This document shows positions 17,255 to 17,494 of a stretch of 27,178 nucleotides of DNA, piece by piece. Every line of letters starts with the position of its first letter. Positions within the stretch are counted from its first letter, which is position 1. Position numbers and translations under genes: made by a program. The stretch is from Candidatus Micrarchaeota archaeon (lineage in GTDB: Archaea > Micrarchaeota > Micrarchaeia > Norongarragalinales > SBBD01), in contig JAHJQN010000006.1 of NCBI GenBank assembly GCA_018819225.1, positions 1 through 27,178 of the forward strand, in the 5' to 3' direction. A model generated the notes under the pieces. It searched no databases. It was not told the origin of the DNA and was given only the letters and a program-made list of their open reading frames with translations.

Positions 17255-17307
17255 GGAAAGTAGAAAACTCGAGCGTATTAATAAGGTTTCTTTACCCTTA
17301 CCAAAAC

Positions 17308-17458
17308 GGGCCTATAGCTTAGCCTGGCTCAGAGCGCCAGACCTCCGCCCTTCAATAGAAGGGAGAAAGGGATGCGAGTCTTATACGACGCCCTTCCGTT
17401 TTGGAAGGGATTGAGCTAGGAAAACTGGTGGTCCCGGGTTCAAATCCCGGTAGGCCCA
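17308..17458 (+). tRNA. tRNA-Ile (anticodon TAT) with two introns (about 17341..17378 at position 29/30 or 30/31; 17386..17422 at 37/38)
   Basis: Spliced sequence GGGCCTA TA GCTT AGCCTGGCTCA GAGC G CCAGT CT TAT AA ACTGG TGGTC CCGGG TTCAAAT CCCGG TAGGCCC A. All stems pair. CTTA/TAGG forms the BHB central helix with an AA|A bulge at 37/38. Confidence 0.9.
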
Positions 17459-17494
17459 CTAGTATTTTTTAAACGGCTTGTTGGTAAGAATAGT

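Follow-up and report, generated by a model that had tools for sequence, protein, structure and literature searches.

The 27,178-nt stretch of DNA from a Candidatus Micrarchaeota archaeon that we analyzed in full (hereafter the window) encodes a tRNA-Ile with the anticodon UAU, and the anticodon loop of this tRNA is carried on a 7-nt micro-exon lodged between two introns. We propose that this single tRNA-Ile(UAU) gene supplies the decoder of the isoleucine codon AUA, and we place the probability of the model as a whole at roughly 0.88. Under this model, a 151-nt precursor would be transcribed from its own promoter and would be cut by a three-unit splicing endonuclease (EndA) at two BHB motifs, namely a relaxed one at position 30/31 and an hBH-type one at the canonical position 37/38. 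The introns would leave one after another, with predicted energies favoring the departure of intron 1 first; the ligase RtcB would join exon 1, the 7-nt micro-exon and exon 3, and the CCA would be added afterwards. The mature tRNA would then read AUA via U34, and in this capacity it would replace the usual archaeal agmatidine-modified tRNA-Ile(CAU), which, together with the enzyme TiaS, appears to be absent from our sample of the phylum.

A tRNA-Ile(UAU) gene with its anticodon on a micro-exon

The gene is matched by the Rfam family RF00005 with 45.5 bits (gathering score 29, E 7e-7), and it is the sole Rfam match within the 27-kb window. The alignment runs end to end over model positions 1-71 and accommodates an 84-nt insertion between the two anticodon-stem strands. 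Once the two introns are taken out (Table 1), the joined exons amount to 76 nt and are recognized by ARAGORN as tRNA-Ile(tat) with a perfect cloverleaf, in which all four stems are perfect and the anticodon stem CCAGU/ACUGG closes the 7-nt loop CU-UAU-AA with U33 and A37. The preliminary description of this DNA had read the same stem and loop after removal of a 38-nt and a 37-nt segment, and had given the length of the middle exon as 7-8 nt; the reading stands, and the exon is 7 nt long. The boundary of intron 1 can be shifted by as much as 2 nt (CC↓AG, CCA↓G or CCAG↓, the arrow marking the boundary) with the product unchanged. The unspliced precursor is 151 nt in length, and the CCA is not encoded.

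The gene is located in a 240-bp intergenic gap. The position of the TATA-like box upstream of it fits archaeal TATA spacing, making the box the probable archaeal promoter of the gene, and the run of six T downstream is probably an archaeal oligo-T terminator. The discriminator A73 and a D-arm resembling that of tRNA-Ile(GAU) of the same genome are compatible with charging by isoleucine. On these grounds 17308-17458 is a real tRNA-Ile(UAU) gene, well supported but ordinary. The sequencing runs listed for this DNA are two groundwater DNA runs, with no RNA run among them.

Table 1. Positions of the tRNA-Ile(UAU) gene parts, its surroundings and other tRNA-related loci of the same genome. Plain numbers are window positions; C1 to C7 denote contigs.
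Feature	Position	Strand	Details
CDP-alcohol phosphatidyltransferase gene	starts 17254	-	flanks the tRNA gene
TATA-like box TATTAATAAG	17276-17285	+	A/T-rich; centred ~27 nt upstream of the tRNA 5' end; probable promoter
tRNA-Ile(UAU) gene	17308-17458	+	two introns
Exon 1	17308-17340	+	acceptor 5' strand, D-arm, G26, positions 27-30 (CCAG); from Rfam and orthologue alignment (by eye) and cloverleaf
Intron 1	17341-17378	+	38 nt; non-canonical 30/31 (or 29/30, same product); relaxed BHB
Micro-exon UCUUAUA	17379-17385	+	7 nt; tRNA positions 31-37; U33 and anticodon U34-A35-U36
Intron 2	17386-17422	+	37 nt; canonical 37/38; hBH-type BHB
Exon 3	17423-17458	+	A38, stem 3' strand ACUGG (starts AACUGG), variable loop UGGUC, T-arm, acceptor 3' strand, A73
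Run of six T	17465-17470	+	7 nt after the discriminator; probable terminator
ORF without Pfam match	from 17495	+	flanks the tRNA gene
tRNA-Tyr(GUA)	C7:4731-4869	-	C1-G72; 20-nt intron at 30/31, micro-exon ACUGUAG (7 nt, positions 31-37), 44-nt intron at 37/38
Initiator tRNA-Met(CAU)	C1:229733-229824	-	A1-U72, three G-C pairs in the anticodon stem, T-loop intron
Elongator tRNA-Met(CAU)	C3:12332-12475		70-nt intron
tRNA-Arg(GCG)	C2:238751-238851	-	T-loop or T-stem intron
tRNA-Leu(GAG)	C3:46447-46566	-	T-loop or T-stem intron
tRNA-Gly(CCC)	C7:141769-141866	+	T-loop or T-stem intron
GACCUCUUUUCUUU-type introns	C2:331336-331480, C6:106541-106804, C7:51960-52114, C7:4516-4649, C2:200857-200986, C7:235126-235322		
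Hairpin element with copy of tRNA 3' end	C1:145497-145685, C2:102742-102987, C5:71290-71472, C7:14708-14895, C7:91703-91892		

Comparison of the anticodon across the order

We searched the DNA of 60 relatives from the same family and order and parsed the loci by script, obtaining 23 that could be read from the acceptor 5' strand to the 3' end. A looser parse, requiring GUCUUAUA followed by an intron starting with YGAC in a tRNA context, yielded 25 loci including that of the window. The loop sequence CUUAUA is invariant in these 25 loci of the order, each of which has an intron at 37/38 (or 38/39) that starts with YGAC; given this recurrence, the arrangement seen in the window's tRNA is far beyond chance. 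Among the 23 fully readable loci, 13 have the 5' strand of a CCAGU-type anticodon stem running unbroken into CUUAUA, with the 37/38 intron as the only one at this place, and 10, including the window, carry an extra intron within that strand. D-loop introns are found in other orthologues, and one from the same family (L007) carries three introns.

Because the 13 orthologues run an uninterrupted stem straight into CUUAUA, they fix the anticodon, and the comparison settles that of the predicted mature tRNA as UAU. The claim of the preliminary description that a UAU anticodon sits on a micro-exon is thereby borne out on two counts, the ARAGORN call for the joined exons and the orthologue stems.

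The same stems weigh against a different course of splicing, in which a single long intron is removed to give another anticodon, or in which positions 17373-17397 are excised and the anticodon is deleted with them. Programs do point in this direction: ARAGORN in its intron mode (-i) calls a tRNA-Phe(gaa) with a 59-nt intron, and a strict BHB scan ranks at the top a 25-nt span (local positions 66-90) with the helix AAGG/CCUU, an inner helix of 3 bp and an outer helix of 4 bp. However, the genome has an ordinary intron-free tRNA-Phe(GAA) (C7:153238-153311), and this separate gene and the orthologue stems together mark the ARAGORN call as wrong. The intron-spanning motif, for its part, would need both stable intron hairpins to be opened and is absent from the minimum-energy fold; it is best seen as a spurious BHB-like structure that arises because the two introns share the words GCCCUUC/GAAGGG. 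We rejected it on these comparative and energetic grounds, the strict 4/4 scan that delivered it being one that recovers intron 2 and not intron 1. A different course of splicing is thus highly improbable, and the two-intron reading with excision at 30/31 and 37/38 is the one followed below.

Splice motifs and splicing enzymes

Both introns were evaluated with a BHB geometry of a 4-bp central helix and two 3-nt bulges, each cut after its second base. In intron 2, the central helix is formed by C32-U33-U34-A35 (CUUA) and UAGG with all four pairs in place, the anticodon stem acts as the outer helix, and the two bulges read UA↓C and AA↓A. The inner helix comes down to one G-C pair, beyond which lie an internal loop and a 7-bp hairpin (CCCUUCC/GGAAGGG), and because this helix is only 1 bp long the predicted motif is classed as the relaxed hBH form of the BHB. 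The central helix pairs 4/4 in 22 of the 23 orthologues, in which UAGG, UGGG, UGAG or UAAG stands opposite CUUA, with the A/G changes falling opposite U33 and U34.

In intron 1, taken in the 30/31 register, C25-G26-C27-C28 faces UGCG with three of four pairs and a C-U mismatch, and the bulges are AG↓A and AG↓U; the central helix has 3/4 pairs in either register, the mismatch being C-U or C-A. The outer helix consists of 3 bp between G22-A23-G24 and C32-U33-U34, and formation of the motif requires the D-stem to open. The intron has an internal hairpin, CCCUUC/GAAGGG. In relatives the corresponding helix is complete (4/4), as CGCC/GGCG at 30/31 in L002, GCGC/GCGC at 29/30 in L003, L004 and L011, and GUGC/GCAC in L015, the last of these being a change compensated on both strands with respect to GCGC/GCGC. 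The site may be counted as a relaxed BHB motif, at which cleavage would depend on the tolerance of the enzyme.

The two introns also display near-identical hairpin words: GCCCUUC...GAAGGGA in intron 1 (17347-17364) and GCCCUUCC...GGAAGGGA in intron 2 (17390-17411). In L002, the closest relative, intron 1 holds another hairpin; we therefore considered a local event, and the shared words may reflect duplication or conversion between the two introns.

A single splicing endonuclease, EndA, is encoded in the genome (ORF L031:889-2049, 387 aa). Its residues 11-387 align with residues 13-387 of the three-unit enzyme of ARMAN-2 (PDB 4FZ2, 4fz2_A) with an E-value of 6e-125, and Pfam detects in it two stretches each of tRNA_int_endo and tRNA_int_endo_N. 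Judged from its sequence, EndA is of the broad-specificity three-unit (epsilon-2) ARMAN-2 type. The preliminary description had argued that the non-canonical intron position calls for just such an endonuclease, and the full-length match to 4FZ2 supplies the candidate. In vitro, the ARMAN-2 enzyme cut not only the strict motif of pre-tRNA-Ile(UAU) but also a relaxed one located at a non-canonical position (PMC3239211). The ligase RtcB is likewise encoded (match with E 3e-174).

Probable AUA decoding without detectable TiaS

The TiaS domain models PF08489 (TiaS_FLD) and PF22641 (TiaS_TCKD) have no match in this 90%-complete genome; as a positive control, both models match in 4 control archaea. 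None of the 61 genomes of the order (the 60 relatives and the genome itself) has a PF08489 match above the cut-off, and a phylum-wide sample of 151 genomes, among which 133 are of high quality, gave no match to this model. Our census of tRNA genes was built by hand with our own scripts and is incomplete, such that an unusually interrupted third CAU gene could escape it; within these bounds it recovered, from the 90%-complete genome, two CAU tRNA genes only, namely the initiator and elongator tRNA-Met, and one UAU tRNA gene, that of the window. The codon AUA occurs 1617 times in the 505 ORFs of at least 300 codons, corresponding to 5.8 per 1000 codons, and since it makes up 10% of the Ile codons, a decoder for it is needed. 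TiaS-independent decoding of AUA, as put forward in the preliminary description, is supported strongly by these observations, though the incomplete census and the 90% completeness of the genome leave room for a missed tRNA-Ile(CAU). The combination of a UAU tRNA and no detectable TiaS holds across the sampled phylum.

Standard tools miss or miscall the gene: ARAGORN in its default mode finds no tRNA in the window, its intron mode gives the tRNA-Phe call discussed above, and a whole-genome Rfam tRNA search did not list the tRNA-Ile(UAU) gene. Automatic annotation would therefore leave AUA without a decoder.

One could also view the locus as a decaying copy, in which intron 1 stays in place on account of its imperfect motif, so that the locus yields no functional tRNA-Ile(UAU) and AUA is read by other means. 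The intron 1 helix, with its 3/4 pairs in either register as against 4/4 in close relatives, is what such decay might look like. Nevertheless, we find this improbable: the gene is the only UAU gene found in a genome with no TiaS match and no third CAU tRNA found, and whose AUA count is that given above; the joined tRNA has four perfect stems; a promoter-like box and a T-run accompany it; and the type of enzyme present cuts relaxed motifs in vitro, as documented for ARMAN-2. We accordingly retain a functional, spliced tRNA-Ile(UAU) as the preferred interpretation.

Distribution of the 37/38 intron

Across the wider class, a pattern search for the loop together with the intron start gave matches in 49 of 151 genomes; we inspected 30 of the loci, and 25 proved to be real tRNA genes. 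Intron-free versions of tRNA-Ile(UAU) (UCUUAUAAGCCGUAGGUCGAGAGUUC and its variants) are found in two families of the class, f13 and f14 (L103-L110 and other matches). The 37/38 intron may have been lost in f13 and f14, or it may have been gained after their split. We interpret it as probably old but dispensable, while the extra intron within the stem would represent local variation that comes and goes between families.

Such dispensability bears on the possibility that the precursor is spliced as proposed, but that the 37/38 intron is retained for an intron-dependent modification of U34 or U36. There is a precedent in yeast, where Pus1 acts on pre-tRNA-Ile(UAU) in an intron-dependent manner (PMC4090602); moreover, all 25 loci of the order keep an intron at 37/38 (or 38/39) with the conserved YGAC start, and ACA is present at intron positions 15-17 in 18 of 25 tRNA-Ile(UAU) introns from other families of the class (L069-L098). 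The window's intron, however, contains no ACA, and within its order ACA is present at that spot in 1 of 25 loci. Further, the intron-free pattern of tRNA-Ile(UAU) is seen in 29 of 46 genomes of f13 and 7 of 25 of f14, and the 37/38 intron of tRNA-Met has likewise been kept by 12 of 13 relatives, so that retention is not special to tRNA-Ile(UAU). We hence give little weight to a role of the intron in modification and continue with an intron that is simply spliced out.

Where the other families of the class carry this ACA, it often lies within the sequence YGAC-NCGYUCU-AAU-ACA.

Order of splicing and alternative folds

The outer helix of intron 1 and the central helix of intron 2 both use C32-U33-U34 of the micro-exon. 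Because both need these bases, the two splice motifs cannot coexist, and because they cannot form simultaneously, the introns would be removed one after the other. Fold prediction puts the minimum free energy of the intact precursor at -67.5 kcal/mol, and the penalty for imposing a splice motif on it is 3.5 kcal/mol in the case of intron 1 and 6.4 kcal/mol in that of intron 2. The minimum-energy fold of the precursor already includes the central helix of intron 1, along with a pairing between the D-loop region and the tail of intron 2. With intron 1 deleted from the sequence in silico, the fold of lowest energy is one that shows the anticodon stem and the canonical intron 2 motif. Ordered splicing is plausible given the competition of the two motifs for C32-U34, and the predictions favor removal of intron 1 first by energies only a few kcal/mol apart.

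In the pairing just mentioned, CCUGGCUCAG of the D-loop region (17323-17332) can join the complementary intron 2 tail UUGAGCUAGG (17411-17420) over 10 uninterrupted bp, the longest such stretch; four bases of this tail have to be paired with the anticodon loop if splicing is to take place. In L003 and L004 the pairing spans 8 bp and is made up of other bases (CCUGGUCC/GGACUAGG), and several orthologues show it again with lengths of 8-11 bp. The 5-bp core of the pairing joins CCUGG to CUAGG, both of which are motifs conserved for other reasons, and the core is therefore forced; the shuffle control that we used for this pairing breaks the core. The pairing may be a real alternative fold or may in part be a by-product of the two conserved motifs.

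A more demanding version would have the precursor fold make the order of splicing obligatory: the shared micro-exon bases and the pairing of the D-loop region with the intron 2 tail would keep the unspliced RNA in a non-cloverleaf form that exposes only intron 1, the loss of which would let the anticodon stem and the cloverleaf form and would present intron 2. We consider this version doubtful, with the odds clearly against it. If true, a tRNA with its anticodon on a 7-nt exon would have its folding checked by the precursor itself.

Relationship to known systems

Nanoarchaeum equitans and Korarchaeum cryptofilum carry tRNA-Ile(UAU). In the genomes of ARMAN-2, -4 and -5, tRNA-Ile(UAU) is present, whereas neither tRNA-Ile(CAU) nor TiaS is (Fujishima et al. 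2011, Nucleic Acids Res 39:9695, PMC3239211). The finding reported here is thus not new in kind, since the 2011 paper on ARMAN already described a UAU tRNA, the absence of TiaS, and tRNAs with two introns and 6-nt exons (PMC3239211). The rarity that the preliminary description ascribed to the UAU anticodon was accordingly overrated, all the more as the anticodon recurs across our phylum sample and micro-exon tRNAs are not confined to this locus (see below).

The pre-tRNA-Ile(UAU) of ARMAN-2, with its 25-nt intron at 37/38 in a strict hBHBh' motif (PMC3239211), resembles that of the window in phylum, anticodon, the presence of a 37/38 intron, the lack of a TiaS match and the three-unit EndA. 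They differ in that the 37/38 intron of the window is 37 nt long with almost no inner helix, and in that the window adds a 38-nt intron at 30/31, which leaves the anticodon on a 7-nt exon. As regards several BHB introns, exons of a few nt and an endonuclease that accepts non-canonical positions, the counterparts are ARMAN-2 tRNA-Pro(GGG), whose introns at 53/54 and 59/60 are six bases apart (PMC3239211, Figure 1C), and, as far as the citing source describes them, the multi-intron tRNAs of the Thermoproteales (Sugahara et al. 2007, 2008, cited in PMC4090602). Unlike in ARMAN-2 tRNA-Pro(GGG), the introns of the window flank the anticodon loop and not the T-loop, and their motifs share three micro-exon bases. 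A further likeness is with the tRNA-Ile(UAU) of eukaryotes and of Mycoplasma mobile, in which U34 is a pseudouridine and unmodified, respectively; in these, too, AUA is read by a U34 tRNA without TiaS or TilS, though the lineages differ (PMC3575796). In the tRNA of the window, U34 may bear some modification that prevents the reading of AUG.

An identical layout is seen in tRNA-Tyr(GUA) of the same genome, which likewise gives a perfect cloverleaf once joined. It differs in having a strict motif at 30/31 (CGUC/GACG, with the inner helix CCUCU/AGAGG) and 3/4 pairs in the central helix at 37/38. This gene is miscalled as Ile(gat) by the intron mode of ARAGORN, and its joined exons are called as tRNA-Tyr(gta). 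An anticodon loop on a micro-exon is also present in three tRNA-Met genes of relatives, and micro-exon tRNAs are common in the order.

Our survey extends the 2011 ARMAN result with 151 genomes of the phylum that have no TiaS match, and the locus documents, with comparative data that support it strongly, how a DPANN archaeon encodes the only AUA-reading tRNA found in it. With two competing motifs and a 7-nt exon, it offers a compact natural substrate for studying the order in which a three-unit endonuclease cuts. Knowledge of AUA decoding itself is left unchanged by the finding.

Further observations on tRNA genes

Many tRNA introns of this genome share the pattern GACCUCUUUUCUUU-loop-AAAGAAAAGxCCUCGAC, followed by an A/G-rich tail. 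The similarity suggests a family of related introns that are probably mobile. Downstream of several tRNA genes lies a short hairpin element (GGUCGAGCUUUCUU...AAGAAAGGUCG), together with a repeat of the 3' end of the tRNA. An intron in the T-loop or T-stem interrupts the initiator tRNA-Met, tRNA-Arg(GCG), tRNA-Leu(GAG) and tRNA-Gly(CCC), and in the Rfam search of the genome these four appear only as truncated or weak matches. Among the relatives, the 37/38 intron of tRNA-Ile(UAU) at one locus (L076, G107:C6) holds a second GGUCUUAUAC, the sequence of the anticodon stem-loop.
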